A stretch of DNA of 64,000 nucleotides. Origin: Clostridium sp. CAG:417 (GTDB taxonomy: Bacteria > Bacillota_I > Bacilli_A > RF39 > UBA660). The notes beneath the pieces were generated by a model. The model searched no databases, was not told where the DNA came from, and saw only the letters and a program-made list of their open reading frames with translations. Numbering within the stretch: the stretch's first letter is position 1; each line of letters opens with the position of its first letter. This document shows, piece after piece, positions 14,624 through 64,000 of this stretch. A program made the position numbers and the translations under genes. The stretch covers positions 62,915 to 126,914 of the forward strand of contig FR890371.1 of the NCBI GenBank assembly GCA_000432835.1, given 5' to 3'.

Positions 14624-14644
14624 AAAATTAGTGAGGGAAAAATT

Positions 14645-16509: not shown

Positions 16510-16528
16510 AGAGATAGGAGTTTTAGGT

Positions 16529-18199: not shown

Positions 18200-18224
18200 T
18201 TATCTATCTTTTTAGAAGGGAATA

Positions 18225-20167: not shown

Positions 20168-21653
20168 AAAAATTACTCTTATAAATATAATTTCAAATAT
20201 AATATTGCAAATAGCAAACATTTTTTCATGGTTCATAATTCCAAAGATAATTTTGACTTATTTTGGTTCTGATGTTAATGGTTTAGTATCCTCTATAACG
20301 CAGTTTTTAAGTTATATTACTTTAATTGAAGGTGGTGTAACTGGTGTTGTAATGGCTAGCTTATATAAACCATTAGTAAATAATGATAATAAAAAGATAA
20401 GTGCAATAATAAAAACATCTCAAAAATTTTACAAAAAAGTTGGTATAATTTTTTCTATATATTGTCTAATCTTGGCAACTGTTTACCCATTATTATTTAA
20501 TACAGGATTTAATTATCTCTATGTGTTTTCTTTAGTGATTGTTTTATCTATTAATTTACTGATTCAATATATGTATTCATTAGCTTTTAGAAATTTGTTA
20601 AACGCTGATAAAAAAGGTTATGTTGTTTCTTTTACTCAAACTTTGATATTAGTTTTAGGAATATTATTGTCATATATTTCTGTTGCTATTTATCCTAGTA
20701 TTCATATATTAAAATTAATAACTGGTTTGTTATTTGTTTTACAGCCTATTATTTATAATAAATATGTAAAAAATCATTATAATATAATGCATGATGCAAA
20801 GGATGATAAAAATTTATTAAAAAATAGATGGAATGGTTTTGCAATTAATATTGCCGCTTTCATTCATAATTGTACTGATATAGCAATTTTAACGATTTTT
20901 ACTAATTTAGCAACAGTTTCCATATATAGTGTTTATTCTATTGTGACAAATGGGCTTCGTTCTATTTTTAATGCTGTTTCTAATGCTATAGTTCCCAATA
21001 TAGGACAGGCTTATGCTAGTGAAAATACAGAAGAAATAAATTCTAAAATGGATCTTTATGAATTTGTCACATTTAATTTGGTTTTTTACATGTTTACGAT
21101 TGCTGCATTACTTATAACTCCTTTTGTAATGATTTATACACATGGAATAAATGATGCAAATTATAATCAGTTAATATTTGGAGTATTATTGGTGGTATCT
21201 GAGGCCATATATTTGATTAAATTTCCTCATTTAAATCTTTCATATTCTGCAAATAAATTTAAAGAATTAACCATTCCTGCCTTTTTGGAGGCCGGTATTA
21301 ATATAATTGTTTCACTTGTTTTTGTTAGTAAATTAGGTCTGATTGGTGTTGCAATAGGAACGATTTGTGGAATGATTTATAGATTGATTTACCAAGTTTA
21401 TTTTAGTACTAAGTTAATTAGAAATAGACCTCAAAAGGTATTTTATAAAAAATTACTTGTATATATTATTTTCACCTTAATTGGTTTAACTTTATGTTAT
21501 TATTTTGTACCAATATCTAAATTTAATATAGGCAGTTTCATTAAGACTTCAATTGTGTATGCGTGCTTGTTCGGAGTTATGTATTTTGTTGCTAGTATAG
21601 TTGCATTTAATAATGAGTTAAAATATTTAAAGAACTATCTAATTAAAAGATAA
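20142..21653 (+). CDS. Wzx-type flippase (MOP superfamily polysaccharide biosynthesis protein)
   Basis: 503 aa with about 12-14 TM helices. Located within the cps locus. Confidence 0.7.
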   Translation: MIMKKRNVKKITLINIISNIILQIANIFSWFIIPKIILTYFGSDVNGLVSSITQFLSYITLIEGGVTGVVMASLYKPLVNNDNKKISAIIKTSQKFYKKVGIIFSIYCLILATVYPLLFNTGFNYLYVFSLVIVLSINLLIQYMYSLAFRNLLNADKKGYVVSFTQTLILVLGILLSYISVAIYPSIHILKLITGLLFVLQPIIYNKYVKNHYNIMHDAKDDKNLLKNRWNGFAINIAAFIHNCTDIAILTIFTNLATVSIYSVYSIVTNGLRSIFNAVSNAIVPNIGQAYASENTEEINSKMDLYEFVTFNLVFYMFTIAALLITPFVMIYTHGINDANYNQLIFGVLLVVSEAIYLIKFPHLNLSYSANKFKELTIPAFLEAGINIIVSLVFVSKLGLIGVAIGTICGMIYRLIYQVYFSTKLIRNRPQKVFYKKLLVYIIFTLIGLTLCYYFVPISKFNIGSFIKTSIVYACLFGVMYFVASIVAFNNELKYLKNYLIKR

Positions 21654-25548: not shown

Positions 25549-25625
25549 GGTCTGTTGGTGAAGTGGTTTAACACGCGCGCCTCTCAAGCTCGTATTCACG
25601 GGTTCGAACCCCGTACAGACTACCA
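25549..25625 (+). tRNA. tRNA, anticodon CUC (Glu-type by anticodon). 77 nt with encoded CCA.
   Basis: Acceptor stem GGTCTGT/ACAGACT (G1:U72), TΨC arm ACGGG-TTCGAAC-CCCGT, anticodon loop CTCTCAA with U33 and A37, and a 3' ACCA. D-stem is only 3 bp and the anticodon stem has one C:T mismatch. Confidence 0.7.
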
Positions 25626-47788: not shown

Positions 47789-49525
47789 ATGAATGGACAG
47801 ACTGTTAGTAATTTAATTAGAAGTAAAACTGATATAGTAGATATTATAGGAGAAAGAATACCTTTAGTAAAAAAAGGAAAGAACTTTTTTGGAATTTGTC
47901 CGTTTCATGATGATACTAATCCTTCAATGTCTGTTTCTAGAGAAAAACAAATATATACTTGTTTTACTTGTCACGCTACGGGAAATGTTTTTAAGTTTTT
48001 AATGGATTATGAAAAAATGAGTTTTCCTGAGGCTTTAAAGTATTTGGGGGATAGAGTAGGAGTAGATACAAATAGTGTAAGGCTAAAAAAAGTAAATAAT
48101 AATAATGATAAATATTATGAAATGTATGACTTTGCAACTAAATATTATCAAAATAATATTTTATCTCCAGCTGGTAGTATGGCTAGAACTTATCTTTCGA
48201 AAAGAGGAATAGATAAAGATATCATTAAAAAATTTGAAATAGGTCTTTCTCTTCCTAATAATGCTGATTTAACAGAATTACTTTTGAAGAAGAAGTATGA
48301 TATAGTTGATCTTAATAAAGCAGGGCTTACTAATAGTAATTACGATGTGTATAAAGATAGAATTATGTTTCCCCTTTTTGATATAAATGGAAAAGTAGTA
48401 GGATTTTCAGGAAGAATATATAAAGATAGCCAAGATAATAAGTATTTGAATACAAAAGAGACTCCTATATTTGTTAAGGGAGAACAACTATATAATTATC
48501 ATATTGCTAAAGAGAAAGCTAGAATTTTAAAATATGTAATTATTATGGAAGGGTTTATGGATGTTATTAGAGCTAGTACTATTGGGTATGAAAATGTAAT
48601 AGCTTTAATGGGAACAGCTCTTACTCATGAACAAATGAAATTAATAAAGAGACTTTCTAATAACATTATATTGTGCTTAGATGGAGATAATCCAGGAAAA
48701 GCTGCGGCCTATAAATTAGGAGAAGAATTTTTAAAAGAAAAAATAGAAGTAAAAGTCGTTACCTTACCTAATAATGATGATCCAGATAGTTTTATTTTAA
48801 AAGAAGGAAAAGAAAAGTTTGCAAGATATATAGAAGAAGCAGAAAATTATAATGATTATAAAATTAGAGTAATGCGTGATAATGTTAATTTTCAAAGTGA
48901 TATAGAAAAAGCTAATTATATTAATAACGTTTTAAAAGAATTAACAGAAGTAAATGATGAAATAAGAATAGAAATTATTTTAAAAAAGCTTGCAAAAGAG
49001 TTCAATTTGGGGTATAATACGTTGGAAAAAAAGTTTTCTAACATTAAAAATAACAAACCTCAAGAAGAGATTAAATTTGTGCCAAAAAATACATCGAAAA
49101 GAAAAGATAAATATAGACAAGCCATAGAACAGGTAATATATTATATGCTTACTAATGAATGGGTAATTAGTGAAGTCGATAAAGAAAGACTCTTATTACC
49201 AGATGATAAAATTAGAATACTAGTACAAGAAATAATATATTATTATAAAACATATGGGGCAGTTTCAATTGCTGATTTTTATACATATTTACAAGATAAA
49301 CAAGAATTATTAGAGACTTTTAATAGTATTTTAAATAGCAATTATAATGATGAAGTTAGTAAGGAAGTTTTATATTTATATTTTGATGTTATTAGGGAAA
49401 ATGTAAAGAATAAAGAGATTAAGAGGTTGGAAGAAAAATTAGTCAAAGAAATAGATCCACTAGAACAAGCTAAGTTGGCTGATATGATTAGAAAGTTACG
49501 AATAGGAGAAAGTAATAATGGTTGA
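47789..49525 (+). CDS. dnaG: DNA primase
   Basis: Zinc-binding domain ([14 protein letters not shown]....CFTCH), TOPRIM (EGFMDV, DGDNPG). Start chosen at the ATG after GGAGA. Confidence 0.92.
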
Positions 49526-50612
49526 AGAAATAAAAACAATGGATGAGAGAAAAAATAAGTTAATCAATTTAGGTAAGAAGCAGGGATATATTACTTATGA
49601 ACAACTTGCTGATGAGTTAAAAGGATTAGATATTGATAGTGATGTTTTAGATGACCTTTATAATTCCTTGGTTGAAGTGGGTATTGAAATAGTAGCAGAA
49701 GATGGTAGCAGTGATGGTGATGATGGTAGTGATATTACTCAAGATATATCAGTTGAAGAGTTAACTTTATCAAAAGATGTTAAAATCAATGACCCTGTTA
49801 GAATGTATTTAAAAGAAATTGGTCGTATTAACTTACTTACATCAGATGAGGAGTTTGAATATGCTAGAAGGGCTATTGATGGAGATGAAGAAGCAAAGAA
49901 AATGCTTGCTGAATCAAATTTAAGATTAGTTGTTTCTATTGCTAAACGTTATGTAGGACGTGGTATGTTATTTCTTGATCTTATTCAAGAGGGAAATATT
50001 GGACTTATGAAGGCAGTAGATAAGTTTGATCCAACTAAAGGATATAAGTTTTCAACTTACGCTACTTGGTGGATAAGACAAGCTATAACTCGTGCTATTG
50101 CAGATCAAGCAAGAACTATCAGAGTTCCTGTTCATATGGTTGAAACAATCAATAAATTATCTCGTGTTCAAAGACAATTAACACAAGAGTTAAATCGTGA
50201 ACCTACAGATGAAGAAATCGCTAAAAAATTAGATATTCCAGTAGAAAAAGTAAGAGAAGTATATAAAATAAGTCAAGATCCTGTATCATTAGAAACACCA
50301 ATTGGTGAGGAAGAAGATTCACATCTTGGAGATTTCTTGCCAGATGAGAGAACAATGGGACCAGAAGAATTTACAACGCAAGAAATGTTAAAAGAAGAGT
50401 TAGATGGTGTCTTACTTACCTTGACTGATCGTGAAGAAAAAGTTCTTCGCCTTCGTTTTGGACTTGATGACGGTCAGTGTAGAACACTAGAAGAAGTAGG
50501 CCAAATCTTTGGAGTTACTAGAGAACGTATTCGTCAAATTGAAGCTAAGGCTTTAAGAAAATTAAGACATCCATCACGTTCAAGAAAATTAAAGGATTTC
50601 ATGACTGACTAA
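49518..50612 (+). CDS. rpoD: RNA polymerase sigma factor RpoD/SigA
   Basis: Regions 1.2-4 ([50 protein letters not shown]). Overlaps dnaG by 8 nt. Confidence 0.95.
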
Positions 50613-51400: not shown

Positions 51401-54034
51401 ATGAAATACGTTTATTTATTTAGTGAAGGTAATAAAAATATGAGGGAAATTCTAGGTGGTAAGGGTGCAAACCTTGCCGAAATGACTTCTCTAGGATTGC
51501 CAGTGCCACAAGGTTTTACGGTATCAACTGATGCTTGCCTTAGCTACTATAATAATGGAGAAAAGATAATACCAGAAATTGAGACAGAAATTTTTTCTAA
51601 ATTAGAAGAATTAGAAAAAATTACAGGTAAAAAGTTTGGAGATCTTTCTAATCCACTTTTAGTATCTGTTAGAAGCGGAGCAAGAGTTTCAATGCCTGGA
51701 ATGATGGACACTGTTTTGAATTTAGGAATGAATGATGCTATATGTGATAATTTAGAAAAAACTTTGGATAATCCAAGATTTGCTTTAGATAGTTATCGCA
51801 GATTAATTCAAATGTATAGTGATGTTGTTATGGGCTTTCCTAAGAGTAGTTTTGAAGGAGTTTTTGATAAATTTAAGGAAGATAAGGGCATAACCCTTGA
51901 TACTGAACTTTCAAATGATGATTTAAAAGAAATTATTAGACTTTATAAGAATGAATATTTAAAATTAGCAGGAGATAATTTTCCTAGTGATCCAAGGGTT
52001 CAATTGTTAGAGGCAGTTAAGGCTGTTTTTAGAAGTTGGAATACAGAAAGGGCAATTACTTATCGTAGATTAAATGATATTCCTTCTGATTGGGGAACAG
52101 CAGTTAATGTTCAACAAATGGTTTATGGAAATAGAGACAAAAATTCTGGTACTGGTGTTTGTTTTACAAGGAATCCGGCAACAGGGGACAAAAAGTTGTT
52201 TGGCGAATATCTAATGAATGCTCAAGGAGAAGATGTAGTTGCTGGTATTAGAACACCACAGGATATAAGTACATTAAAAGATGTAATGCCAGAGTGTTAT
52301 GAACAATTTCAAAATATTTGTAATGTGCTTGAAAATCACTATCATGATATGCAAGATATGGAATTTACTATTGAAGATGGTAAACTTTATATGTTACAAA
52401 CTAGAAATGGTAAAAGAACTGCAAAAGCAGCAATTAAGATTGCAGTTGATTTAGTTCATGAAGGACAAATTAGTATAAATGAAGCTTTGATGATGGTTGA
52501 TGCTAAAGACCTTGATCAGTTGTTACATCCTGTTTTTAATGAAGATGATTTAAAAAATAAAGAGGTTATTGCGACTGGTCTTGCGGCATCTCCTGGAGCA
52601 GCTACTGGTAAATTGTATTTTAGTGCGGAAGATGTGTTAAATGCTCATAAGGCAGGGGAAAAAGATATTATTTTAGCGCGTGAAGAAACTTCTCCTGAAG
52701 ATATAGAAGGTATGAATGTAGCACATGGTATTTTAACTGTTAGAGGTGGTATGACATCTCATGCAGCTGTTGTTGCTCGTGGTATGGGAACTACTTGTGT
52801 AAGTGGATGTAGTAGTTTAATTGTTGATAGTAGTAATAAAACTTTACAAACGAGTGATGGTAGAGTTTATCATGAAGGAGACTATTTAAGTCTTGATGGT
52901 ACTAGTGGTAGGGTTTATAGCGGAAAAGTAGAGTTACTTGATGCTAAAATTAGTGGTGAATTTGAAGAGTTTATGAACTGGGCTGATAGCGTTAGAAAGC
53001 TTGAAGTAAGAGCTAATGCAGATAATCCTAGAGATGCGAGAGTAGCTCATAATTTTGGAGCTCAAGGTATAGGACTTTGTCGTACTGAGCATATGTTCTT
53101 TAGTGAAGAGAGAATCTTTAACTTTAGACGTATGATAATTGCGACGACTGAAGAGCAAAGAAAAGAAGCTCTTAGTAAAATTTTACCTTATCAAAGAGAG
53201 GACTTTGAAGGGTTATTTTCTGAGATGAATAATTTACCTGTTATCATTCGTTTCCTTGATCCACCACTTCATGAATTTTTACCACATACGGATAGTGAAA
53301 TGGAAGAATTAGCTAATAGTATGGGAGTAGCGTTTGATGTAATTAAAAATAAAGTTGAGAGTTTAAAGGAATTTAATCCAATGATGGGACACAGAGGATG
53401 TAGACTTGATGTTACTTATCCTGAGATTGCTAGAATGCAAACAAGAGCTGTTATTGAGGCCGCTATTAATGTTACTTTACGAGGATTCAAAGTTATTCCT
53501 GAAATTATGATTCCGCTTATTGGAGATATGAATGAGCTTAAATATGTCAAAAAATTAATTACTGATGAAGCTTCTAAGGTATTTGAAGAAAACAGGATGA
53601 GGATTGATTATAAAGTAGGAACAATGATAGAAATTCCTAGAGCAACACTTATTGCTGATGAGATTGCCAGTGAAGCTGAGTTCTTTAGTTTTGGTACTAA
53701 TGACTTAACTCAACTTACTTATGGTTTCTCTAGAGATGATGCTTCTAAATTCTTGAAGGATTATTATGATAAAAAGATATTCCTACATGATCCTTTCCAA
53801 TCTATAGATGAAGAGGGAGTTGGAAAGTTGGTTGATATTTCTGTTAGAAAATCAAGGACAGTTCGTAGAGACATTGAACTTGGTATTTGTGGAGAACATG
53901 GTGGAGATCCTAAATCTATCGATTTCTGTCATAGGGTAGGACTTAATTATGTTTCTTGTTCTCCTTATAGAGTTCCAGTTGCACGTTTAGCTGCTGCGCA
54001 AGCTGCGATTAGAAATAGTATTGATGTAATATAG
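51401..54034 (+). CDS. ppdK: Pyruvate, phosphate dikinase
   Basis: ATP-grasp N-domain (GGKGANLAEM), central phospho-His domain (GGMTSHAAVVARG) and PEP-utilising C-domain (RTEHMF, GTNDLTQ). The last 12 codons lie in a direct repeat; see the repeat features. Confidence 0.95.
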   Translation: MKYVYLFSEGNKNMREILGGKGANLAEMTSLGLPVPQGFTVSTDACLSYYNNGEKIIPEIETEIFSKLEELEKITGKKFGDLSNPLLVSVRSGARVSMPGMMDTVLNLGMNDAICDNLEKTLDNPRFALDSYRRLIQMYSDVVMGFPKSSFEGVFDKFKEDKGITLDTELSNDDLKEIIRLYKNEYLKLAGDNFPSDPRVQLLEAVKAVFRSWNTERAITYRRLNDIPSDWGTAVNVQQMVYGNRDKNSGTGVCFTRNPATGDKKLFGEYLMNAQGEDVVAGIRTPQDISTLKDVMPECYEQFQNICNVLENHYHDMQDMEFTIEDGKLYMLQTRNGKRTAKAAIKIAVDLVHEGQISINEALMMVDAKDLDQLLHPVFNEDDLKNKEVIATGLAASPGAATGKLYFSAEDVLNAHKAGEKDIILAREETSPEDIEGMNVAHGILTVRGGMTSHAAVVARGMGTTCVSGCSSLIVDSSNKTLQTSDGRVYHEGDYLSLDGTSGRVYSGKVELLDAKISGEFEEFMNWADSVRKLEVRANADNPRDARVAHNFGAQGIGLCRTEHMFFSEERIFNFRRMIIATTEEQRKEALSKILPYQREDFEGLFSEMNNLPVIIRFLDPPLHEFLPHTDSEMEELANSMGVAFDVIKNKVESLKEFNPMMGHRGCRLDVTYPEIARMQTRAVIEAAINVTLRGFKVIPEIMIPLIGDMNELKYVKKLITDEASKVFEENRMRIDYKVGTMIEIPRATLIADEIASEAEFFSFGTNDLTQLTYGFSRDDASKFLKDYYDKKIFLHDPFQSIDEEGVGKLVDISVRKSRTVRRDIELGICGEHGGDPKSIDFCHRVGLNYVSCSPYRVPVARLAAAQAAIRNSIDVI

Positions 54035-54046
54035 AGTAAAAGTAGA
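53999..54046 (+). repeat. Direct repeat copy 1 (48 bp, 47/48 identical to 63326..63373), spanning the last 12 codons and stop of ppdK
   Basis: caaGctgcgattagaaatagtattgatgtaatatagagtaaaagtaga occurs twice. Candidate attL-like junction. Confidence 0.85.
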
Positions 54047-54353
54047 AAAAATAACAAAAATGTTTTTAGGTGGCATAATCATTATGAATGACGATATTAT
54101 AAGGTATAGAATGATATACCTGAATGTAAAAATATAGTCATTAAAAATCACTTATTCCTGATGTTTATATATAATTTTAAGACTGAGATGACTTTTATGT
54201 CGCAAAGCTCAGTCTTTTTATGTGAAAAATATATATGTGCGATAAGTTGTTGGAAAATTAAAAAATGGAATTAATATATACAAAATGTAAGTTAATGAAT
54301 TTATCATAATAATCAAGAATTGATTTGTAAGACGTTTTAGATTTTTAATATAG

Positions 54354-54489
54354 GATGATGTATCAGATAAACTTGGTTTGTTTGGTTATTGTAAAAGAAG
54401 AATAATAGCAAGATATGAAAAAGAAGATAGAATCCCAAAAGATGAAAGATTAATATAAATAGCAAATATTTTAAATGTAAGTTTTAATT
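54354..54489 (+). pseudogene. Fragment of an XRE-family HTH regulator, missing helix 1 and the start codon and carrying an internal stop
   Basis: In-frame translation ...ISDKLGLFGYCKRRIIARYEKEDRIPKDERLI*IANILNVSFN matches the C-terminal half of Cro/C1-type HTH domains (IskwE.G...P....L..iA.il.VS.d). Confidence 0.4.
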
Positions 54490-54909
54490 AAATTAAAAAA
54501 TATGATTATAACAATCTAATAGGCTTAATTTATACTTTAATGTGGTTAAAAGAATTAATTCTCAATTATTATATTAAAGATTTTGATGATGATGAAGCAA
54601 TTATATGTATGGTAGATTCAAATAAGATATCTCCATTTTAAAAAGAATTGAGTCAGTAATTTCTTGTCAAATACTTGGAAGAGATAAAAGATATATTAAA
54701 AAATATATAATTGGAACAATTAAATTATACAATAAAAATAATAGACAAAGTAAACTTTTTACAAAAAATGTGGTATAACATTGTTGATAAAATTTTCGGG
54801 TGAATGATACAATGAAGAAGGAAAATATTCTAAATTTATTTATAGGTAATATTATAAATATTATTATTACTGTCATACCTCCTATTGCAATATTTAGTTT
54901 TTATAATGA

Positions 54910-55038
54910 ATTGGTCGTATTAACTTACTTACATTAGATGAGGAGTTTGAATACTCTAGAAGAACTATCAATAGAGATGAAGAAGCAAAGGGAATGCTTG
55001 CTGAATCAAATTTAAGATTAGTTGTTTCTATTGCTAAA
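54910..55038 (+). pseudogene. 129-bp partial duplicate of rpoD (nt 49818..49946, sigma region 1.2/2.1), about 92% identical, with no start codon
   Basis: 119/129 identical positions by manual alignment. The encoded peptide [43 protein letters not shown] matches the host [43 protein letters not shown]. The two sequences diverge immediately after. Confidence 0.8.
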
Positions 55039-55464
55039 CATAATACGAGAATAGATTATATTGGACATATTGCTGATACTCTTGGAGTATCTTTAGAACA
55101 ATTATTTGCAGAAATATTAAGAAGTTTCGTTTAGAAAAATATAATAAGTTTAATAAGAAAAACTTAAATACATCTATTAATCCATATTCTACTGAGAATA
55201 TTTCTGCATTTTTAGATTATAATCACAATTTTTATAGGAAATTTGAAAGTGATAATGAGATGATACTTTTAGAAAAACTAGTTAAATTATCTATTATTTT
55301 AGATAAAAAATTGAATGATTTTATTAGATAACTAATTGTTAAAAAAGCTTTGACTTTCCAGGAAAAAAATGGTAAGATATGCCTCAAAAAGAGGAGTATC
55401 ATTAATAAATTTAAAATTACAAAAATATTCTTTTTTACATTTTAAATGAAAAGGAGGAAATAAT

Positions 55465-56109
55465 GTGTTTGAAACGGAGGTTAGATTTTATTTTAATAAA
55501 AATGAATCTACAAAAATTATATCTTATTTAAAAAATATAGATTTGCTTTCTTTTGATGGTAGATTTTATGAGGTAACTCAACAATTTGATCATCCAGAAA
55601 TTTCTAAGTCTTTTTATTCATTGCAAGTTGATGGCAGATTTAGAGTTAGATTGTCAAAAGGTGAATTGTTTAGTAAGTTAAAAGTATCATGGAAACAGCG
55701 TTTAAAAAAAGATAGAATTGATAATAAAATTCATAGGGAAAGGGAAGTTGAAATTAATTTAAATCCAAATGAGTATGATAATTTAATGTATATATTGAAT
55801 GAAGTTATTGATATGAAACTTGTAGAGAGTTATGAAAGATATAGGAGTGCTTTTTCTAATAAAGAAGTAGAAATAGTTGTGGATGAGTATCCATTTGCTA
55901 CAGCTATTGAGATTGAAAGCAAAACTGATGACTCTATATCATTAAATTTGTGGATAGACAGATTGGGTTTAAAATTAGAGGATGCTTATAGTTTATCTTG
56001 GGATGATAAATATAATGAATTATGTAAAGAACAAGGGAAAACAGCAACTAAGTTTGTTACATTTGAATCTGATATGCCAGAGTTAAAAAATTGTATTTTT
56101 GGAGAATAA
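55465..56109 (+). CDS. CYTH-like triphosphate tunnel metalloenzyme (class IV adenylyl cyclase/triphosphatase fold)
   Basis: N-terminal ExExR (FETEVRF), an R-rich strand (GRFRVRLSKGE), REREVEINL, and a C-terminal ATAIEIESK acidic strand, matching the CYTH motif pattern. GGAGG RBS. Confidence 0.5.
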   Translation: MFETEVRFYFNKNESTKIISYLKNIDLLSFDGRFYEVTQQFDHPEISKSFYSLQVDGRFRVRLSKGELFSKLKVSWKQRLKKDRIDNKIHREREVEINLNPNEYDNLMYILNEVIDMKLVESYERYRSAFSNKEVEIVVDEYPFATAIEIESKTDDSISLNLWIDRLGLKLEDAYSLSWDDKYNELCKEQGKTATKFVTFESDMPELKNCIFGE

Positions 56110-56110
56110 A

Positions 56111-56980
56111 ATGGAAAGTATAAAGAAAATTGAAAATGGTAATCTTAATGATGTATATAAATTAGTTCTAAATAATAAAAAGTATATTTTAAGAGTGACA
56201 AAATTTAATAATGATTGTGAGATAAATACATTGCTAATTTTAAAAAAATATAATTTAAATGTGCCAAATCTGTTAGCTCATTTTAGTGTTTATAATAAAA
56301 ATGTAATGTTATTAGATTATATTGAAGGGAGTAATCCTCTGAAAATTGATACTAAATTTATTACTGAACTTTTAAAACAGTTAAAAAAACTTCATAATAT
56401 TCCATATGAACATTTGGAAGAAAAATCAATAAATACAATAGAAAATTTTGAAAGATTGAGTGAATATTATGTTGTAAGCAAAGAATCAAATTTTTTAAAG
56501 CAAAAAATTCATTTAATTAATTCTATTTTGGAAGATGTTAGAGATATACCTTTTGATAAAATACCAAAATGCATAGTACATTCTGACATAAAAAAAGAGA
56601 ATGTGCTAGTAAATAATAATATTGTTTACATAATTGATTTTGGAAATAGTTATATAGGAAATAGGCTAATAGATTTAGTTAGAATAATTATGTGGTTTTT
56701 TTTGAAAGAAAATGATTTTAATATTGACGAAATAGAAAACAGTTTTAAAGTATATTTTGAAAATAATCATCTTATTGATTTAGAATATAATAATCTTAGT
56801 AAAATAATAAAATTTTGTGTTATTTATAATTTAATTAAAGATGTTTATTTATTTGAAAAAGGATTCTTATCTGAAAATTATGTTGTTAAAAATGATACAA
56901 AATGGTTAAATGCATTGGAAAATGAACAATTATTAGAGAAAGTAAAGGAGGCTTTAAATAATGCTAGTAGATATTCATAA
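56111..56980 (+). CDS. APH/choline-kinase-like small-molecule phosphotransferase (protein-kinase-like fold)
   Basis: Gly-rich loop region (GNLNDVYKL), catalytic VHSDIKKENVL (HxDxxxxN) and IIDFGNS (DFG-like). Confidence 0.6.
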   Translation: MESIKKIENGNLNDVYKLVLNNKKYILRVTKFNNDCEINTLLILKKYNLNVPNLLAHFSVYNKNVMLLDYIEGSNPLKIDTKFITELLKQLKKLHNIPYEHLEEKSINTIENFERLSEYYVVSKESNFLKQKIHLINSILEDVRDIPFDKIPKCIVHSDIKKENVLVNNNIVYIIDFGNSYIGNRLIDLVRIIMWFFLKENDFNIDEIENSFKVYFENNHLIDLEYNNLSKIIKFCVIYNLIKDVYLFEKGFLSENYVVKNDTKWLNALENEQLLEKVKEALNNASRYS

Positions 56981-57752
56981 AAATAAAGATTTAAGGAATA
57001 TAGAGGTTAATAATATAGGAATTTGTGATTATAAATTGCCAATAATATTTAAAAATAAGAGCAATATTTTTCCTACTATTGCAACTATTACTTCTACAGT
57101 AGTTTTAGATAGGAACCTAAAAGGCGCTCACTTAAGTAGAATTTCTGAGGTTATTAATGATTCATTAATAAACAAAAACATTTCATTGGGTGATATTAAT
57201 GATATAACTAAAGAAGTTGCAGAAAGATCAGAAACTAAAGGTGCTAATTTAATATTATCATTCGATTTAATTAACAAAAGATTAACACCTGTATCTAAAA
57301 AGGATTCTTATTTATCTTCTAAAATTACAATAATTAGTGATATTTTTGATAAAAGTGTTAGCAATAAATTGATTGTAGAGACTGTTGGTACAATGCTTTG
57401 TCCATGTTCAAAAGCAATTTCTAAGTATGGTGCACATAATCAAATATGTAATTTAAAAGTTTCGTTAACAGGTAATATTGAAAGTATAGATGTTGAAAAA
57501 ATTATTGATATTATGGAACAACAATTTAGTTCACCTGTTTATAGTACTGTTAAAAGAGAAGATGAAAAATACATTACTGAAAAGGCTTATGAAAATCCTA
57601 AGTTTTCAGAAGACTTGATTAGAGATACTATAATAGCTATTCATAATTATTATTCTGCTTGCGATATAAGGGTAGAATTAGTCAACAATGAATCAATTCA
57701 TCAACATAATGTTTATGCAATGGGAGAACAAAATGCTGATTTTAACTCATAA
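56961..57752 (+). CDS. folE2: GTP cyclohydrolase FolE2/MptA family (GCYH-IB)
   Basis: KGAHLSRISE (the ..H.SRF motif), CPCSKAIS...GAHNQ and C-terminal NESIHQHNVYA (ESIHNHSAYA-like), diagnostic of FolE2/MptA. AAGGAGG RBS. Confidence 0.7.
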   Translation: MLVDIHKNKDLRNIEVNNIGICDYKLPIIFKNKSNIFPTIATITSTVVLDRNLKGAHLSRISEVINDSLINKNISLGDINDITKEVAERSETKGANLILSFDLINKRLTPVSKKDSYLSSKITIISDIFDKSVSNKLIVETVGTMLCPCSKAISKYGAHNQICNLKVSLTGNIESIDVEKIIDIMEQQFSSPVYSTVKREDEKYITEKAYENPKFSEDLIRDTIIAIHNYYSACDIRVELVNNESIHQHNVYAMGEQNADFNS

Positions 57753-58581
57753 AGAATTGTATGATAGATATTTAATCAATGTTGGTGATGACTCTAAAAA
57801 GGAAATTAAATCTATATTAACGGCTATGGAAAAACATGGCTATTCTAGTTTGATAAAACAAAAAATTAACATGAATGAAGAAACATTTTATTATTTATAT
57901 TCTTTGTTAATAAAATTAAAAGAAATATTTGATACAAGATATAACAATAGAAATGATTTAGAAATCTTTTTTGATTATGTATTACAAGGTATCGATAGTA
58001 TTCCAATTAACTTTTATGCTATTTTTTGTCCTGGTTATAATGATGATGGATACAAAGATAGGCTAGGTAAAACTACTACTACTAAAATACAAAAACTTTT
58101 TCAAATGAAACAATTATTAGATAAGGAGAATGTTTTACATAATATTCATTGTTTATATGCAGATATTTTTTTAGAGAATTGTGATGAACTTAAAAATCCA
58201 AATTGGGAAAAGGAATTAGAGGTTAATAAAAATCTATTTAAGGAATATGCCATTAAATATTTAGAATGTGCAGATATTGGTTTTTTATCAAGTTATTTTT
58301 CTGATAGTAAATATCAGAGAGGCTTTGTTGATTCTAGTATTATTAATGGTAATAATTATGAGTCATTTAGAAAATATAATAATAATTTTTATATGAAAAT
58401 GGGCTGGGATGATGCTAAAACAAAAGAACGTAATGATAAGTTATATACAATTTATAATATAATTGCTGAATATATTATCAATACAAAATCAAATGGTGTT
58501 TATTTACCGATGGAGAATATGTATGCACGAACTAAAGTGTTTACTAAGAAAAAAGTGAGTTCAATGTATTTTAAATTGTAG
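57733..58581 (+). CDS. Hypothetical protein (283 aa), unique to this operon
   Basis: Start at the ATG after GGGAGAA, overlapping folE2 by 20 nt (translationally coupled). No recognisable motif. Confidence 0.4.
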   Translation: MLILTHKELYDRYLINVGDDSKKEIKSILTAMEKHGYSSLIKQKINMNEETFYYLYSLLIKLKEIFDTRYNNRNDLEIFFDYVLQGIDSIPINFYAIFCPGYNDDGYKDRLGKTTTTKIQKLFQMKQLLDKENVLHNIHCLYADIFLENCDELKNPNWEKELEVNKNLFKEYAIKYLECADIGFLSSYFSDSKYQRGFVDSSIINGNNYESFRKYNNNFYMKMGWDDAKTKERNDKLYTIYNIIAEYIINTKSNGVYLPMENMYARTKVFTKKKVSSMYFKL

Positions 58582-58591
58582 AGGAGTAAAT

Positions 58592-60604
58592 ATGAATTAT
58601 AAAGAAAAAGGTAATCTGTTTTGTAAAGAAATAAATCAATTATTGGCAAATAAAAATGAATACTATGCTTTGGTTACTGGAGGTGGATTTGCTTATGATT
58701 CTGTAAAGTATTCGGATACTATACAGGGTGATTATGATTTTATGATAGTATATAAGGATGTTGAGCAATTAAATTCTTTAATAGAAGAATTAGAAAAAAT
58801 TCCATTTGATTTTGAAAAGAAATATTTAGTTTCTGATTTACATTTATTAAAAAGTAAAGTAATAGATATCATAAGATTAAGTGGTAAATATCGTGGTACC
58901 AAGAGTACTATTAACTTAGTAAACATAGAGTTAATTAAAAGAATAGCAAATTTGGAAACAAGAATGTCTTTAAAGAAAATTGCTCATAATAGAAATACTG
59001 GTCTGTTTTTTGCATATGGTTCTGATAATAGCAGAATAATTGTAAACTTTTTATCACCATCATTTGTTAGTAATGATGGTGAAGATCACTATATTCATTT
59101 AGATTTTTCTAATATTATTGTAGATAATAATATTTATTTTGGTATATTAGCAGATGCTATTTTAAAGGGTTTTAATAGTAATTATGATAATGTAGGCTTT
59201 AAGAAAGTACGTCAAAAGATGATAAAAAATATTAATAACTTTTTTAAAAATAATAAAATCGATAATAGTAATTATCTAAACTTGTATGCTAACAATATAT
59301 ATTTTCCAGAAAGTTTAAAAAGACAATTACTTGAAGAATTCAATAAATATGGTAAAAATGTTTTTGCAGAAAAAAATACTATATCTAATACAAAATATCC
59401 AATTATTTTTGCTGTTGATAATCCAATTAATAGAAAAATGAATCCATTTAATTTTATAAATAATAAAAGTTACAGATGTTCTTTTGATGATTATATTAAT
59501 GAAATGCAAAAAAATGAATATGATAGACAATATTTGCTAGACGCATTAGCTAAATTGTTTGGATATGTTGCTTTTTCGAATAGTAAATTAGAGGGTGATA
59601 ATTATATAGAAAATATCATATCTAAATTCAGTGTATATGGTAATAATGATTTGTATTTTGAAGGAATTGAAAAATATTCTGTTAATACTATTTTTGGTTC
59701 ATTTATTAATGATTTAAAAGTAAATAGATTTAAATATAACCCTATTTTATATAAAAATTATTTGCTAATGTTGTTAAGTTTTTTGTCATTTTATAATAAT
59801 AAGAATATTTTTGATATGTCCTTAAAATATGAAGTTAATGTTCAAAAATTGGTTAAACCTGAATTAGATAATACTAAAATGAATAGTAAAGTAATATTGA
59901 AGTTGTTTAATTTTGATGATATAGGTATGTATCATAATTATACATCAAAGGTTATGCCTGGATATACACAAACTGAATGTGATTTTTTAGAAAAAGTATT
60001 TATAGATAAAAAAGAGCCTGTTTTAGATATTATGTGTGGATATGGAAGAATAGCTAATGAATTAGTTAAAAGAAATTATAAAAATGTGTATGGCGTTGAT
60101 TTTTCTGGTTATTCTTTTTTGAATGTAGATAAGAATTTTATTTTTTCTAAAGATGATTTCTTTCATTATCGACCAGGTATATTATTTAAATATTTATATA
60201 GCTTATATAATTGTTATGAAAATAAGGAATATTTGAGAAAAGTAATCAATAAAATGGCAGAATTGTCTGCTGATAATGCTCTTGCTATTTTAGATGTTTT
60301 TAACAAAGAATGGCGAGATAAAATAGATCCTGAATTTTATAAATTGCTTTTTGATAGTTCTCCTGTAAAATTAGAAATTAGTAGGCATTATGATGATACA
60401 ACAGGCGTTGAAACAACTAAATATTTAAAAACAATGTCTGATAATGAACAAGAAGAATATAGTTTTTCTCAAAAGTTTTTTACACAGACTGAGATAGAGG
60501 AGTCTATAGATTATAAAAAATGGAATATAGATTTTTTTACATCTGCTGAGGTTGGATCAAGAAATAATAATCAGAAAAGAATTTTGGTTTTAAGGAGGCG
60601 ATAA
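58592..60604 (+). CDS. Two-domain protein: N-terminal nucleotidyltransferase (pol-beta-like) fold plus C-terminal class I SAM-dependent methyltransferase
   Basis: N-terminal LVTGGGFAYDSVKYSDTIQGDYDFMIV fits hG[GS]x(9-14)DhDh. C-terminal VLDIMCGYGRIANEL...VYGVDFS is SAM-MTase motif I plus the post-I acidic residue. Confidence 0.5.
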   Translation: MNYKEKGNLFCKEINQLLANKNEYYALVTGGGFAYDSVKYSDTIQGDYDFMIVYKDVEQLNSLIEELEKIPFDFEKKYLVSDLHLLKSKVIDIIRLSGKYRGTKSTINLVNIELIKRIANLETRMSLKKIAHNRNTGLFFAYGSDNSRIIVNFLSPSFVSNDGEDHYIHLDFSNIIVDNNIYFGILADAILKGFNSNYDNVGFKKVRQKMIKNINNFFKNNKIDNSNYLNLYANNIYFPESLKRQLLEEFNKYGKNVFAEKNTISNTKYPIIFAVDNPINRKMNPFNFINNKSYRCSFDDYINEMQKNEYDRQYLLDALAKLFGYVAFSNSKLEGDNYIENIISKFSVYGNNDLYFEGIEKYSVNTIFGSFINDLKVNRFKYNPILYKNYLLMLLSFLSFYNNKNIFDMSLKYEVNVQKLVKPELDNTKMNSKVILKLFNFDDIGMYHNYTSKVMPGYTQTECDFLEKVFIDKKEPVLDIMCGYGRIANELVKRNYKNVYGVDFSGYSFLNVDKNFIFSKDDFFHYRPGILFKYLYSLYNCYENKEYLRKVINKMAELSADNALAILDVFNKEWRDKIDPEFYKLLFDSSPVKLEISRHYDDTTGVETTKYLKTMSDNEQEEYSFSQKFFTQTEIEESIDYKKWNIDFFTSAEVGSRNNNQKRILVLRRR

Positions 60605-60606
60605 AT

Positions 60607-61143
60607 ATGTCAATTATAGCAATTGAAGGAAGTAACTGTAGTGGAAAGTCAACATTGATAGATTATTTAGTTAAATATTATAATTTTAAATCTTCAAAAT
60701 CAGTACCTGAGTGGTTTAGACCATATATACCTTTTGCAAGAGAATTACAACCTCAAATACAACGAAAAATATATGAGATAGGACATATTGCAGCGTACTA
60801 TGATGCACTAAAAGAAAAAAAATGTACTATTTTTGACCGTTGTTACTTTTCAACATATATTCGATTATCATATCAAGAAAGTAAAACTGTAAATGAGTGT
60901 GTAGATCAAATTGCTTCTTTTCACTATAAGCCTGATTTAATAATTGTTCTAACTGTTCCTAAAGAAATTATGGAGCAGAGGTTGGTAGAAAGGAATAAAC
61001 AGTTTAATCAGGATTTTTTTGAATATGAAAATTCTGTTTATTTACAATTATCACTCAAATATGATAACATTATATTAGTTGATAATAGTAAAAATATAAA
61101 ATTTTGTACGAATGAAATATTGAGAAAAATAAAAGGGAGATAA
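60607..61143 (+). CDS. Deoxynucleoside-kinase/thymidylate-kinase-like P-loop nucleoside (nucleotide) kinase
   Basis: IAIEGSNCSGKST P-loop in the dNK context (I.IEG..G.GKST), FDRCYFS (DR/ERS motif), and a lid/base-binding region. Confidence 0.6.
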   Translation: MSIIAIEGSNCSGKSTLIDYLVKYYNFKSSKSVPEWFRPYIPFARELQPQIQRKIYEIGHIAAYYDALKEKKCTIFDRCYFSTYIRLSYQESKTVNECVDQIASFHYKPDLIIVLTVPKEIMEQRLVERNKQFNQDFFEYENSVYLQLSLKYDNIILVDNSKNIKFCTNEILRKIKGR

Positions 61144-61146
61144 GTT

Positions 61147-62085
61147 ATGAATGATGTAAGAGAGCAATTGAAATATGTAGTGGAAAATAGTGTTTATGTA
61201 AAAATTAATTATACTCAATTAGATAATTTTATAAATAGTTTAGGAAAGCCAAATTATCGACATTGGTATAATTTTACTTCTTTAAATTTAAACGAAAAGG
61301 AAAAAATTATTTTAGCCTTTATAATAGAAAGTTTAAATTTTTGTTTTTGGCAAAAGCCAAAATTTAAAATTGAATATAAAGGTAATATTATAAAAGGGTC
61401 TGAGGCTTTATTTTATTCAATTATAAGAGAAGTAGAATCTAATAAAGATTTTTTAGATATAGAATTTTTAAATAAATTAACAAAAGATGATTTTGAAAAA
61501 ATATTTTATTCGCCTGATAGTATAATACCTTTATTCGATTTGAGATATGATCTTTTTAAAGATACTGTTAAAACAATGTATAATAAAGGACAGAGTTTTT
61601 TTGATGAATTGTTTAATAAGAAATCAGATGTTGATTTATTAAAGTATATTGTGTCAGAATTTAAGTATTTTGATGATAGTAGTATATATAAAGGTAAAAG
61701 AATAAAGTTTAACAAACGTGCTACTTTACTTGTTAATGACTTATATTATATGTCATCTACAATACATAATAATTTAAAAAATGTTGATAATTTAACAGGT
61801 TGTGCTGATTATGGTATACCAAGGACTTTAAGAACGTATGGGATTTTAGAATATAATGAGGAATTATCTAACATAATTGATAGTGAGATAGAGTTAAAGC
61901 ATGATAGTAATATGGAAATTGAAATTAGAGCTAATATGCTTTATGTATTAGAATTAATTAGAGAAAAATTAGAAAGTAAAGGTATTAAAATTAATTCTGT
62001 AGAATTAGATAATATTATTTGGCAGATGGGAACGAAGAAGAAAAATGTAAATCCATATCATCATACAATTACAATATTTTATTAG
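61147..62085 (+). CDS. qng1: Qng1/DUF2419-family protein (queuosine 5'-phosphate N-glycosylase/hydrolase homologue)
   Basis: Block-by-block similarity to human QNG1 (C9orf64): SLNFCFW vs TLNFSFW, KGKRIKFNKRATLLVNDL vs EGKRVSFYKRAQILVADT, GCADYGIPRTL vs FADYRLPQVL, EIEIRANMLYVLELIRE vs EVEIRGCSLWCVELIRD, C-terminal HHTITIFY vs HRIRCIYY. Confidence 0.65.
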   Translation: MNDVREQLKYVVENSVYVKINYTQLDNFINSLGKPNYRHWYNFTSLNLNEKEKIILAFIIESLNFCFWQKPKFKIEYKGNIIKGSEALFYSIIREVESNKDFLDIEFLNKLTKDDFEKIFYSPDSIIPLFDLRYDLFKDTVKTMYNKGQSFFDELFNKKSDVDLLKYIVSEFKYFDDSSIYKGKRIKFNKRATLLVNDLYYMSSTIHNNLKNVDNLTGCADYGIPRTLRTYGILEYNEELSNIIDSEIELKHDSNMEIEIRANMLYVLELIREKLESKGIKINSVELDNIIWQMGTKKKNVNPYHHTITIFY

Positions 62086-62423
62086 ATTCTATTATAAACT
62101 AAATTTTAGACAAGTTAGTAACCCACTATGATATTGACGGAGCCAATAATGAATTTGGGTAAAGGGAGTTTCCCTTTGAGGACCCACTTAGAGTAACAAA
62201 TTACAAAGTGTTATAACACAATAATGTTGTATAAAAATAACCATGTTGCTAAAAAGTGAAATGTGCCTCATACAGTAGACATCAATAAAAACCTATTTAA
62301 TAAAAATGTGGTAGAATACACTTCTGAAGGTGGTGTATTCTTATGATTTAAAAAGGAAAAAAGCATATTAAACATATTGATGAATTTAAAAAAATTAGAA
62401 ATGAACTTAAATATATTAACAAA

Positions 62424-62987
62424 ATGTGTGAAAAGTATAATGATAATATAAATTCAATAAATCACTATACTAAACCTGCAAATCTAGGAGATGGGTATGA
62501 TATTATAAGACCTATTCTATGGGATTATATAATTCAAATGGCGGTTGCAAATTCAGAAACACACAATATAATCCAGTTCTTAAGAGGTAAGGCTGAACTA
62601 TATGAGTCACAATTTTCTCAAAATGCATATTTTCACAGTATAGAAAGTTTTATTAACACTTTAAAAAATAGTAATAATTGTATTGTCGTTAATTTAGTTT
62701 CTAATTTAGAAACAAGAAAAAATAGAAATAGAATAAGATTTGAAAATGGTGGACATTATGTTTCTGATGATACTATGGACAAAATATATTCAAAAGACAT
62801 ATTTGAATATACAAAAACTGGCGAAAATTTTGGATATTTATTAGTTGCTGGTCAAACTATTCCAGTATATACTATTGTTAATGATAAAACACTTAACGAG
62901 ATTGCATTAAATAATTTTTTAGAATATAATGTCAATAGGGTAATAAAATATTACAATGATTTTAAGGAAGGAAAAACATGGAATTAA
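62424..62987 (+). CDS. Hypothetical protein, possibly the C-terminal part of a P-loop kinase-like fold. No ATG-initiated upstream extension.
   Basis: KNRNRIRF..GGHYVSDD is reminiscent of the lid region of adenylate/zeta-type kinases. Preceded by a TGgTAGAAT extended -10 and an AGAATACAC...GTGTATTCT hairpin in the 5' leader. Confidence 0.3.
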   Translation: MCEKYNDNINSINHYTKPANLGDGYDIIRPILWDYIIQMAVANSETHNIIQFLRGKAELYESQFSQNAYFHSIESFINTLKNSNNCIVVNLVSNLETRKNRNRIRFENGGHYVSDDTMDKIYSKDIFEYTKTGENFGYLLVAGQTIPVYTIVNDKTLNEIALNNFLEYNVNRVIKYYNDFKEGKTWN

Positions 62988-63277
62988 AAAAGATTCAAAA
63001 AGATGTTTGGCAGAATAAGTTAAACAAAGGATTTAATACAACAGATGTAAATAAAGAGTTTTGTTTATTATATGGAGAAGTTTCTGAAGCGTATGATGCT
63101 TGGAAAAAGAAAAAAGATGATTTGAATGAAGAATTAGCAGACATTGCTATTTACTTAATGGGTCTATCTGAAATGTTGGGTTTTGATTTAGCAGATGAAA
63201 TAGAGAAGAAAGTTTCTAAAAATGAAAAACGAGTATATAAAAATATAGATGGGGTTAATGTAAGAATAAGTGATTAA
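62978..63277 (+). CDS. MazG-like nucleoside triphosphate pyrophosphohydrolase (small all-alpha NTP-PPase)
   Basis: LYGEVSEAYDAWKK....EELADIAIYLMGLSEMLGFDLADEIEKK..KNEKRVY is the EExxE...ELADxxxY MazG/HisE-type signature. Confidence 0.6.
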   Translation: MELKKIQKDVWQNKLNKGFNTTDVNKEFCLLYGEVSEAYDAWKKKKDDLNEELADIAIYLMGLSEMLGFDLADEIEKKVSKNEKRVYKNIDGVNVRISD

Positions 63278-63325
63278 TATTTAGATTTAAATTTGTATTA
63301 AGATATTCCGAACTAAATCTTGGTA

Positions 63326-63373
63326 CAAACTGCGATTAGAAATAGTATTGATGTAATATAGAGTAAAAGTAGA
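63326..63373 (+). repeat. Direct repeat copy 2 (displaced native ppdK 3' end), followed by a terminator-like hairpin TTGTTTCTT-gaaaaa-AAGAAACAA
   Basis: 47/48 identity with 53999..54046. Still encodes ...TAIRNSIDVI* in frame. Candidate attR-like junction. Confidence 0.85.
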
Positions 63374-63455
63374 TAGCAAAAATATGCAAATTTGTTTCTT
63401 GAAAAAAGAAACAAAAAATAGTATAATTTTATGTGTTAAACGAGTAGCTTTTAAG

Positions 63456-63498
63456 AAAGAGGCGTAAATCCAGTTTATGGATTTTGCCTCTTTTTTCT
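63456..63498 (+). terminator. Rho-independent terminator (or attenuator) upstream of the MATE gene
   Basis: AAAGAGGC...GCCTCTTT stem, with an internal sub-hairpin, followed by a T-run. Confidence 0.5.
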
Positions 63499-63519
63499 CG
63501 TTAAATAAGGAGGAAAATT

Positions 63520-64000
63520 ATGAAGGATGAAAGTCAAAATAAAATGGCAATAGAGCCAATTAATAAACTTATTTTAAAAATGGGTTTACCTATGATTGTA
63601 TCTATGGTTTTACAAGCATTATATAATGTAATCGATAGCATCTTTGTTGCTAATATGGGTTCTACTGGTGCTATTGCAAATCAAGCATTAACTTATGCTT
63701 TTCCAATTCAGATAATGATTATTGCGATTGGAGTTGGAACAGGTGTTGGTTTAAATGCTTTACTATCTAAGAGTTTAGGAGAAAATGATAAAAATAAAGT
63801 AAATAAGATAGCGGGGAATGGAATATTTTTAAGTATATGTATTTATATTTTCTTTTTGATATTTGGATTATTCTTCTCTAAGTGGTTTATTTCTTTATTT
63901 ACTAATGATAAAGAAATTATCAAGATGGGAACTACTTACTTAAAGATTTGTACTTGTTTGTCATTAGGTTCTATTGGATATACTGTTTATGAGAGATTTT
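63520..64000 (+). CDS. MATE-family efflux transporter, 3'-truncated at window end
   Basis: AAGGAGG RBS. MATE N-terminal helix pattern (MAIEPINKLILKMGLPMIVSMVLQALYNVIDSIFVAN.G). Confidence 0.7.
   Translation, partial: MKDESQNKMAIEPINKLILKMGLPMIVSMVLQALYNVIDSIFVANMGSTGAIANQALTYAFPIQIMIIAIGVGTGVGLNALLSKSLGENDKNKVNKIAGNGIFLSICIYIFFLIFGLFFSKWFISLFTNDKEIIKMGTTYLKICTCLSLGSIGYTVYERF

Follow-up and report, generated by a model that had tools for sequence, protein, structure and literature searches.

Introduction

In the case of pseudouridine, the kinase YeiC phosphorylates the modified nucleoside, after which the pseudouridine-5'-phosphate glycosidase YeiN cuts the glycosidic bond, and the genes of both enzymes lie side by side. 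N-glycosidases that act on nucleotide 5'-monophosphates are also found in biosynthetic pathways, where the cytokinin enzyme LOG and the MilB/BlsM enzymes of mildiomycin and blasticidin S release a free base at the end or the start of the route. Here, we describe a locus in a 64,000-nt stretch of DNA from Clostridium sp. CAG:417 (contig FR890371.1 of assembly GCA_000432835.1; the window) in which the gene of a small P-loop kinase directly precedes that of a homologue of Qng1 (DUF2419), the glycosidase that releases queuine from queuosine 5'-monophosphate (Q-5'-MP).

Qng1 enzymes favour Q-5'-MP as substrate, and Hung et al. (2023; PMC9881137) call the kinase that would form this nucleotide 'unidentified'. 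The same paper argues that nucleoside 5'-monophosphates (5'-NMPs) are direct products of RNA degradation, and that Qng1 hence needs no kinase (PMC9881137). A full-text literature search for 'queuosine kinase' gave no paper, and the published survey of Qng1 neighbourhoods, which was aimed at transporters, does not mention kinases. An earlier interpretation of the window (the sequence-only reading) had proposed that the two genes form a salvage pair, in which the kinase phosphorylates queuosine or a 7-deazaguanosine and the Qng1 homologue, hereafter Qng1-like, hydrolyses the product. We find that kinase and Qng1-like are the last two, coupled cistrons of a mobile seven-gene operon and not a self-contained two-gene salvage unit. 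Literature searches gave no description of this gene cluster.

Results

The gene pair closes a seven-gene operon

Both reading frames are present as previously described, with the kinase gene ending 3 nt before Qng1-like: GTT is all that separates the kinase stop codon TAA (61141-61143) from the ATG at 61147. A Shine-Dalgarno-like stretch, AAAGGGAG, sits within the 3' end of the kinase gene, upstream of this ATG. The translational coupling that had been suspected from the spacing is borne out by the short gap together with this ribosome-binding site (RBS). The pair forms the end of a series of seven cistrons on the plus strand (55465-62085; Table 1), an operon of which the sequence-only reading had made no mention. 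In order, these genes encode a CYTH-like protein, an APH-like kinase, GTP cyclohydrolase IB (GCH-IB), a protein resembling aminoacyl-tRNA synthetases and cyclodipeptide synthases (aaRS/CDPS-like), a 670-aa fusion of a nucleotidyltransferase-like (NTase-like) domain with an N-methyltransferase, the P-loop kinase and Qng1-like. Between successive genes there are overlaps of 11 and 20 nt and gaps of 10, 2 and 3 nt; a start of the fourth gene at 57733 would add another overlap of 20 nt.

For comparison we used 17 informative kinase contexts from AT-rich gut Bacilli, with upstream DNA present in 16. The check proposed with the sequence-only reading, co-occurrence of this kinase family with DUF2419 in other genomes, came out positive: Qng1-like follows the kinase, directly or past one NUDIX gene, in 13 of the 17 contexts (kinases 41-83% identical). 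That the adjacency recurs in so many independent contexts, even where kinase identity falls to 41%, confirms that it exceeds chance. The gene of the fusion protein, intact or as a remnant, lies immediately upstream of the kinase in all 16 contexts with upstream DNA. Four operon variants have the kinase without Qng1 (D16-56, L027, L033 and L034), two of which, L033 and L034, end in a NUDIX gene. In D16-56 and L027 the order APH-GCH-aaRS-like-fusion-kinase is kept at 24-44% identity over the five proteins. The conserved core thus comprises five genes that always occur together, namely those of the APH-like kinase, GCH-IB, the aaRS/CDPS-like protein, the fusion and the P-loop kinase. Added to this core are CYTH, NUDIX and Qng1-like, the last of them present in most, not all, versions from AT-rich gut Bacilli.

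The dependence within the pair is not mutual: besides the 13 adjacent cases and the four kinases without Qng1, Qng1-like occurs without the kinase at many loci. Lone Qng1-like genes are found in L018, L020 and L021, preceded by kinase remnants in L021 and L018; Qng1-like therefore works without the kinase. In L001, L010 and L035, the upstream operon genes survive as fragments only. Often added at the operon end, Qng1-like is retained when the rest of the operon decays. Comparison of L021 (9881-10936) with L006 (1291-7907), which share the same chromosomal neighbourhood, reveals a clean deletion that runs from CYTH through most of the kinase gene and spares its last ~110 nt and an intact Qng1-like gene. 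The kinase family is rare, with at least 13 clusters among 5.8 billion proteins in a word-indexed search that missed at least the L026 kinase, and no eukaryotic members were detected in it. Qng1-like is much commoner, with 354 clusters against these 13 in the same word-indexed search.

The NUDIX family (146-147 aa, 57-87% identity between operon variants) is encoded either between kinase and Qng1-like or at the operon end. The cassette in the window has no NUDIX gene; its island carries a MazG-like pyrophosphatase gene. A Peptidase_U32-family gene adjoins the operon in L025 (10510-11232) and L027 (630-1847), the two most divergent cassettes, both without adjacent Qng1, and is paired with an O-methyltransferase gene in L027. 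The Peptidase_U32 family includes RNA-base hydroxylases. This adjacency may reflect coincidence or a functional link.

The operon is horizontally mobile

In the window, two 47-nt direct repeats bracket an island of ~9.3 kb (54047-63326) at the 3' end of ppdK. The left copy consists of the final 35 nt of ppdK, with the stop codon, and a further 12 nt. DNA identity of ~96% to three loci from metagenome-assembled genomes (MAGs) is limited to 55103-62256, with unrelated flanks, and homology to the cassette-bearing MAG loci starts at 55032/55103. The cassette occupies at least five chromosomal sites, which lie after ppdK, folD, an alpha/beta-hydrolase gene and tsf, and between dnaA and rpmH; in Bacterium D16-56 its neighbours are topoisomerase and methylase genes that belong to a mobile element. 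Its hosts are very AT-rich gut Bacilli (23-27% GC). The cassette proteins are 94-97% identical to those of MAG loci designated 'uncultured Tenericutes', 'uncultured Bacilli' and 'Candidatus Faecimonas gallistercoris', consistent with the gut-type Firmicute that had been assumed. The 187-aa and MazG-like genes at the right side of the island have no counterpart adjoining the cassette in L022-L024. In the decayed left part, a short sigma-70/helix-turn-helix (HTH)-like open reading frame (ORF; 54994-55134) repeats a 13-residue peptide of the resident rpoD (49518-50612), followed by an HTH-like segment, and resembles the remnant of a sigma-factor gene. In L027 and L018, too, small genes of the sigma-70 family are found close to the cassette.

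Kinase and Qng1-like both deviate from their described relatives

The kinase has the fold of thymidylate and deoxynucleoside kinases (TMK/dNK) and the motifs that had been quoted for it (IAIEGSNCSGKST at residues 4-16, FDRCYFS at 76-82), with matches to the Pfam families Thymidylate_kin (PF02223; 1.4e-14, 54.6 bits, cut-off 27), AAA_28 (6e-9) and dNK (2e-7). Among PHROGs it matches thymidylate kinase (1e-18), and among PDB entries TMK (1.5e-11), whereas deoxynucleoside kinases reach E-values of 0.004-0.02; the alignment to Mycoplasma deoxyguanosine kinase is full-length but weak (E 0.004). The equivalog cut-off of the NCBIfam dTMP kinase TIGR00041 (83.25) is not reached (51.1 bits, 1.3e-13). 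TMK structures align to residues 68-176 only, and residues 25-67 align to no solved kinase. This acceptor region is specific to the family (KSVPEWFRxYIPFAR..YEIGH), with invariant S32, P34, W36, R45, Y56 and H60. Also invariant over nine divergent members are G8-T16 (Walker A, GxxxxGK[ST]), D77-R78 and the LID arginine R125.

Nucleoside kinases of the dNK type carry their general-base Glu in an E-P-x-x-x-W segment after the P-loop helix. At this place the kinase family has S-V-P-[EDN]-W, out of register in the sequence alignment and with N in L027. Judged from its affinities, the kinase leans to a phosphate acceptor (nucleoside monophosphate, NMP) over a nucleoside. The identity as a nucleoside kinase that had been assumed loses ground accordingly, as the closest matches are NMP (thymidylate) kinases. 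The outcome that the sequence-only reading had set against itself, a kinase specific for canonical deoxynucleosides or dTMP that does not accompany DUF2419, finds no support in the genomes either: the gene is no orthologous dTMP kinase (51 bits against 83), and the co-occurrence exists.

The assignment of the second gene to the Qng1 family stood. Qng1-like matches PF10343 (Q_salvage) at 1.4e-54 and 186 bits (cut-off 25) and the Qng1 structures of Sphaerobacter thermophilus (StQng1; 7uk3/7u07) at 3.5e-38, or 2e-47 with a profile of its clade. Residue roles in StQng1 were taken from Hung et al. (2023; PMC9881137), and conservation was judged over 21 clade members. The catalytic set is retained (StQng1 D231, K199, D207 and N72 correspond to D221, K190, D198 and N64 of Qng1-like), with D69 conservatively replaced by E61. 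Base recognition is likewise retained (D298 to D288, W302 to W292, the aliphatic I203 to L194), as are ribose stacking (F75 to F67, Y232 to Y222) and the C-terminal Tyr carboxylate (Y312). The cyclopentenediol pocket is not: Y93, W94, W299 and H53 are replaced by S85, E86, N289 and S45, and P46 falls in a gap. W48 (W40 of Qng1-like) is the only one retained of the four aromatic residues in the queuosine side-chain pocket. In the phosphate pocket R80 is conservatively replaced by K72, K233 by G223 and Q306 by T296, the latter followed by K297/K298, and R226, which is close by in the sequence, could compensate.

Within the clade, S85 is invariant, N289 nearly so and G223 invariant or nearly so, and the remaining replacements are the majority residues. 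The pocket residues being replaced and conserved as such, side-chain specificity, and perhaps the preference for phosphate, has therefore likely shifted. By its retained residues, Qng1-like is a glycosidase of the Qng1 family with a guanine-like ribonucleoside or ribonucleotide as predicted substrate, which may be other than Q-5'-MP.

Upstream genes and surroundings

The third gene encodes a bona fide FolE2, whose activity is deduced from strong homology. It aligns with the FolE2 structure of Neisseria gonorrhoeae (3d2o) at 7.5e-49, retains KGxHxSR, LCPCSK..YGAHNQ and ESIHxH, and scores slightly under the NCBIfam FolE2 equivalog cut-off (189 against 215). In the APH-like kinase, the HSDIKKEN catalytic loop and IDFGN are invariant over the family alignment, and its profile gives generic protein-kinase-fold matches only in the PDB. 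The 282-aa protein shows a Rossmann fold like that of class-Ic aminoacyl-tRNA synthetases and cyclodipeptide synthases, and no PP-loop; a sequence search of the PDB gave no match for it. In its family alignment, an invariant Cys99 stands where cyclodipeptide synthases have their acyl-accepting Ser, and Y257-x3-E261 and Y279 are spaced as the catalytic Tyr/Glu/Tyr of these enzymes. Possibly the protein is a CDPS-like enzyme that forms a thioester, a type not known to have been described. The fusion protein combines an N-terminal domain with a Pol-beta nucleotidyltransferase-like GGG..DxD..D motif, for which no sequence match was found in the PDB, a helical middle domain and a C-terminal fold of small-molecule N-methyltransferases dependent on S-adenosylmethionine (SAM), nearest to CcbJ, CypM and TylM1/DesVI. 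The CYTH-like protein, with an N-terminal ETEVR similar to the ExExK motif and no match in a PDB sequence search, is accessory: its gene is fused to that of the APH-like kinase in L005 and not present in L026, L029, L033, L025 and L027.

No Rfam match at gathering score lies near the operon and none at E<=1 in 54000-64000, including preQ1 and THF riboswitches; the sole gathering-score match in the window is a tRNA (25549-25622). Promoter and terminator scans were uninformative in such AT-rich DNA. A radical-SAM Cys motif was not seen by eye in the translations. A QueD/E/C route hidden among the genes without assigned family was considered and rejected, as the 282-aa protein is not of the PP-loop type and the fusion consists of NTase-like and methyltransferase parts.

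GTP cyclohydrolase IB is also the first enzyme of preQ0 synthesis, and FolE/FolE2 genes often cluster with queuosine genes. Elsewhere in the window, queA (8719-9747; PF02547, 8e-140) is confirmed to be intact at the place previously given, and is the only que gene found among the ~35 window ORFs scanned, which gave no tgt, queL or other que gene. In 8719-11055, queA follows ruvB, as usual in Firmicutes, and the next gene encodes a LysM protein and not Tgt. Since queA implies a Tgt route of the preQ1 type, free queuine would not be directly usable, which weakens the benefit from queuine salvage that had been suggested for this organism. Further along, 12497-21653 holds a capsule/exopolysaccharide-type locus with Wzz, a tyrosine-kinase-like ATPase, CpsB, a priming sugar transferase, GT4 glycosyltransferases and LicD.

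Table 1. Positions of the operon genes, the island elements and the NUDIX genes of related loci.
Feature	Position	Strand	Details
Left 47-nt direct repeat copy, att-like boundary	54000-54046	+	repeat search; 98% identical to 63327-63373
Decayed non-coding left part of the island	54047-55464		no ORF >69 aa
CYTH-like (triphosphate tunnel) protein	55465-56109	+	214 aa; weak PF01928 match, 0.0036
APH / protein-kinase-like-fold small-molecule kinase (core)	56099-56980	+	293 aa; PF01636 1.6e-19
GTP cyclohydrolase IB, FolE2 (core)	56961-57752	+	263 aa; PF02649 5e-64
aaRS/CDPS-like protein (core)	57733-58581	+	282 aa; mechanical ORF starts 57688; no Pfam family
NTase-like/N-methyltransferase fusion (core)	58592-60604	+	670 aa; predicted model pLDDT 91.5
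P-loop kinase of TMK/dNK fold, divergent (core)	60607-61143	+	178 aa; Walker A 8-16, DR motif 77-78
Qng1/DUF2419-family N-glycosidase homologue	61147-62085	+	312 aa; Pfam and StQng1 alignment
No-family protein within the island	62424-62987	+	187 aa
MazG-like pyrophosphatase within the island	62978-63277	+	99 aa
Right 47-nt direct repeat copy	63327-63373	+	terminator-like hairpin ~63457-63498 after it; new gene from 63521
NUDIX gene, L012	6834-7277		
NUDIX gene, L001	4809-5252		
NUDIX gene, L031	4913-5353		
NUDIX gene, L033	8563-9003		
NUDIX gene, L027	7543-7986		

Discussion

We tentatively favour, at a little under an even chance, the explanation that an undescribed GTP-initiated pathway includes the kinase as a core enzyme, with a connected guanine-like 5'-monophosphate as the substrate of Qng1-like. 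The module would start from GTP via GCH-IB. A guanine-derived nucleotide metabolite would then be made or processed, and tailored by acylation, nucleotidylation, methylation or a combination of these. The TMK-like kinase, together with NUDIX in sister operons, would set the 5'-phosphorylation state of this nucleotide, the acceptor being more probably a phosphate (XMP to XDP) than a nucleoside 5'-OH by sequence affinity. Finally, Qng1-like would cleave a guanine-like ribonucleoside 5'-monophosphate into free base and ribose 5-phosphate, serving either product release or salvage and self-protection. The conversion of queuosine via Q-5'-MP to queuine would be one special case of this scheme.

Several points weigh against this explanation. 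Every substrate and the direction of flux are inferred, and the sequence cannot decide between an NMP and a nucleoside as acceptor of the kinase. Qng1-like stands alone in many relatives, which implies a function independent of the module, and the conserved adjacency could come in part from shared descent within a narrow group of very AT-rich Bacilli. The cassette contains no queD/E/C, folate or known pterin genes. In addition, GCH-IB normally consumes the ribose of GTP and yields a pterin without an N-glycosidic bond for cleavage of the Qng1 type. As this bond is destroyed at the first step, the scheme does not account for how the beginning and end of the operon connect chemically.

A bolder version of the GTP-initiated pathway is possible, though doubtful. 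Here, the cassette would be an undescribed mobile pathway of gut Bacilli that builds a tailored guanine-derived (pterin- or deazapurine-like) nucleotide by means of GCH-IB, the Cys-containing CDPS/TyrRS-like enzyme, the fusion and two kinases, while release, recycling or detoxification of its base would fall to a Qng1 of shifted specificity. The kinase and Qng1-like would then handle a new modified nucleotide, not queuosine.

The salvage pair of the sequence-only reading stands in part. We consider it unlikely that the kinase is a dedicated queuosine/7-deazaguanosine 5'-kinase making Q-5'-MP for Qng1-like, with the other operon genes engaged in related 7-deazaguanine metabolism. The recurrent coupled adjacency in 13 of 17 contexts, with the 3-nt spacing and the RBS inside the kinase gene, does argue for it, as do the failure to qualify as an equivalog dTMP kinase, the weak full-length alignment to Mycoplasma deoxyguanosine kinase and the presence of GCH-IB, the first preQ0 enzyme, as a second queuosine-related gene in the operon. 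The preference of Qng1 for Q-5'-MP, whose kinase is 'unidentified', fits as well (PMC9881137). However, four operon variants have the kinase but no Qng1, and in no case is the fusion gene missing; the linkage of the kinase to the genes of the APH-like kinase, GCH-IB, the aaRS/CDPS-like protein and the fusion is tighter than that to Qng1, and Qng1-like is kept alone after decay of the kinase. The TMK matches are far stronger than the dNK matches, and the ExP general-base Glu of nucleoside kinases has no clear counterpart, position 35 varying between E, D and N. On the side of the glycosidase, the cyclopentenediol pocket is not conserved, a route from nucleoside via NMP to base leaves no role for the NUDIX enzyme that several operons encode between kinase and Qng1, and queA implies preQ1, not queuine, as substrate of Tgt.

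Alternatively, the kinase could be an NMP/NDP kinase that supplies the upstream module, perhaps feeding GTP to GCH-IB or NTP to the NTase-like domain, with Qng1-like an independent salvage gene on the same transcript that acts on Q-5'-MP or related nucleotides from RNA turnover. Kinases adjoining prokaryotic viperins supply NTP likewise. The TMK-like affinities, weak PADLOC matches to the viperin-associated kinase VakA (3.5e-8) and PDC-M51B, the universal linkage to the fusion gene and the lone Qng1-like genes of L018, L020 and L021 point in this direction, and Qng1 needs no kinase where RNA degradation gives 5'-NMPs directly (PMC9881137). We nevertheless hold this supply role improbable: the tight coupling of kinase and Qng1-like is kept across clades at 41-54% kinase identity, cassette and Qng1-like move jointly to different chromosomal sites, and the acceptor region is unlike that of any housekeeping NMP kinase.

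Decidedly less probable is a conflict system, either a toxin/antibiotic producer or an anti-phage system, that makes a toxic guanine-nucleotide analogue, with NUDIX and Qng1-like for self-protection and the lone Qng1-like genes as orphan immunity genes. Such a system would agree with the mobile island and its att-like repeats, the mobile-element genes for topoisomerase and methylase that adjoin the D16-56 cassette, the patchy distribution with frequent decay leaving Qng1-like only, and the APH-like, NTase-like, N-methyltransferase (nearest CcbJ/CypM/TylM1) and CDPS/aaRS-like classes, which are typical of secondary-metabolite clusters. Yet the cassette has no conserved gene for an exporter, regulator or effector, no toxin-like component was recognised, and no viral contig encoding the aaRS-like or Qng1-like protein was found. 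A known anti-phage system was rejected, as PADLOC gave only generic kinase matches and no known defence system, and PHROGs only 'thymidylate kinase' and 'pyrophosphatase'. Finally, that the kinase is the thymidylate kinase of the cell, or another canonical dNMP/dN kinase placed here by coincidence, is rejected as highly improbable: thymidylate kinases are its best Pfam, PDB and PHROG matches, but it scores 51 bits against an equivalog cut-off of 83, has its dTMP-binding region replaced by a family-specific motif so that residues 68-176 alone align, belongs to a very rare family (at least 13 clusters in 5.8 billion proteins) and lies on a mobile island, with pseudogenes in relatives.

Returning to the GTP-initiated pathway, its mobile cassette of five to eight genes, mostly encoding no-family proteins, is a candidate for a new GTP-derived metabolic pathway in the gut microbiome, in which known families such as Qng1 and the TMK-fold kinases may be set in a new context. 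The large gut-bacterial Qng1-like clade has a remodelled pocket, and 'Q_salvage' annotations may hide a different substrate; we can only speculate on preQ0/preQ1-type nucleotides, glycosylated queuosine from host tRNA or the product of the operon. At the same time, the coupling of a kinase with a Qng1 homologue provides the first genomic lead to an activity that forms Q-5'-MP from imported queuosine, for which the enzyme is called unidentified in PMC9881137. As no eukaryotic members were detected in its family, it would not alone identify the human kinase.

Compared to known systems, the operon shares a bona fide FolE2 with the FolE2-initiated pathways to folate and, via QueD, QueE and QueC, to preQ0 and queuosine, but it has no FolB/K/P/C or QueD/E/C/F and contains instead the aaRS/CDPS-like protein, the fusion and two kinases. 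The kinase resembles the TMK/dNK fold (PF02223, PF01712; Aquifex aeolicus TMK 2pbr, Mycoplasma dGK 2jaq) in its Walker A motif, the D77-R78 of the DR(Y/H) type, a LID region with conserved Arg and Glu and its overall length; it differs by a score under the dTMP-kinase equivalog cut-off, its own acceptor segment, its rarity and its location on an island. The logic of YeiC/YeiN is the same as that of the proposed queuosine pair, yet the protein families are unrelated (a PfkB kinase and the YeiN fold), and that pair stands alone, whereas the kinase described here is TMK-like and part of a larger module. LOG and MilB/BlsM differ from Qng1-like in fold and base, and are a possible parallel should the operon make such a nucleotide. 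With the Qng1/QNG1 enzymes of S. thermophilus and human (7uk3, 7u07, 7ugk), Qng1-like shares homology over its full length, the catalytic Asp and Lys of the helix-hairpin-helix (HhH) domain, the Asp/Trp pair for recognition of the 2-amino-6-oxo base face, the Phe and Tyr that stack on the ribose and the carboxylate of the C-terminal Tyr. It deviates from them by Y93S, W94E, W299N, H53S, K233G, Q306T and R80K and, in contrast to any described Qng1, its gene is predicted to share a transcript with a kinase and a GCH-IB module.

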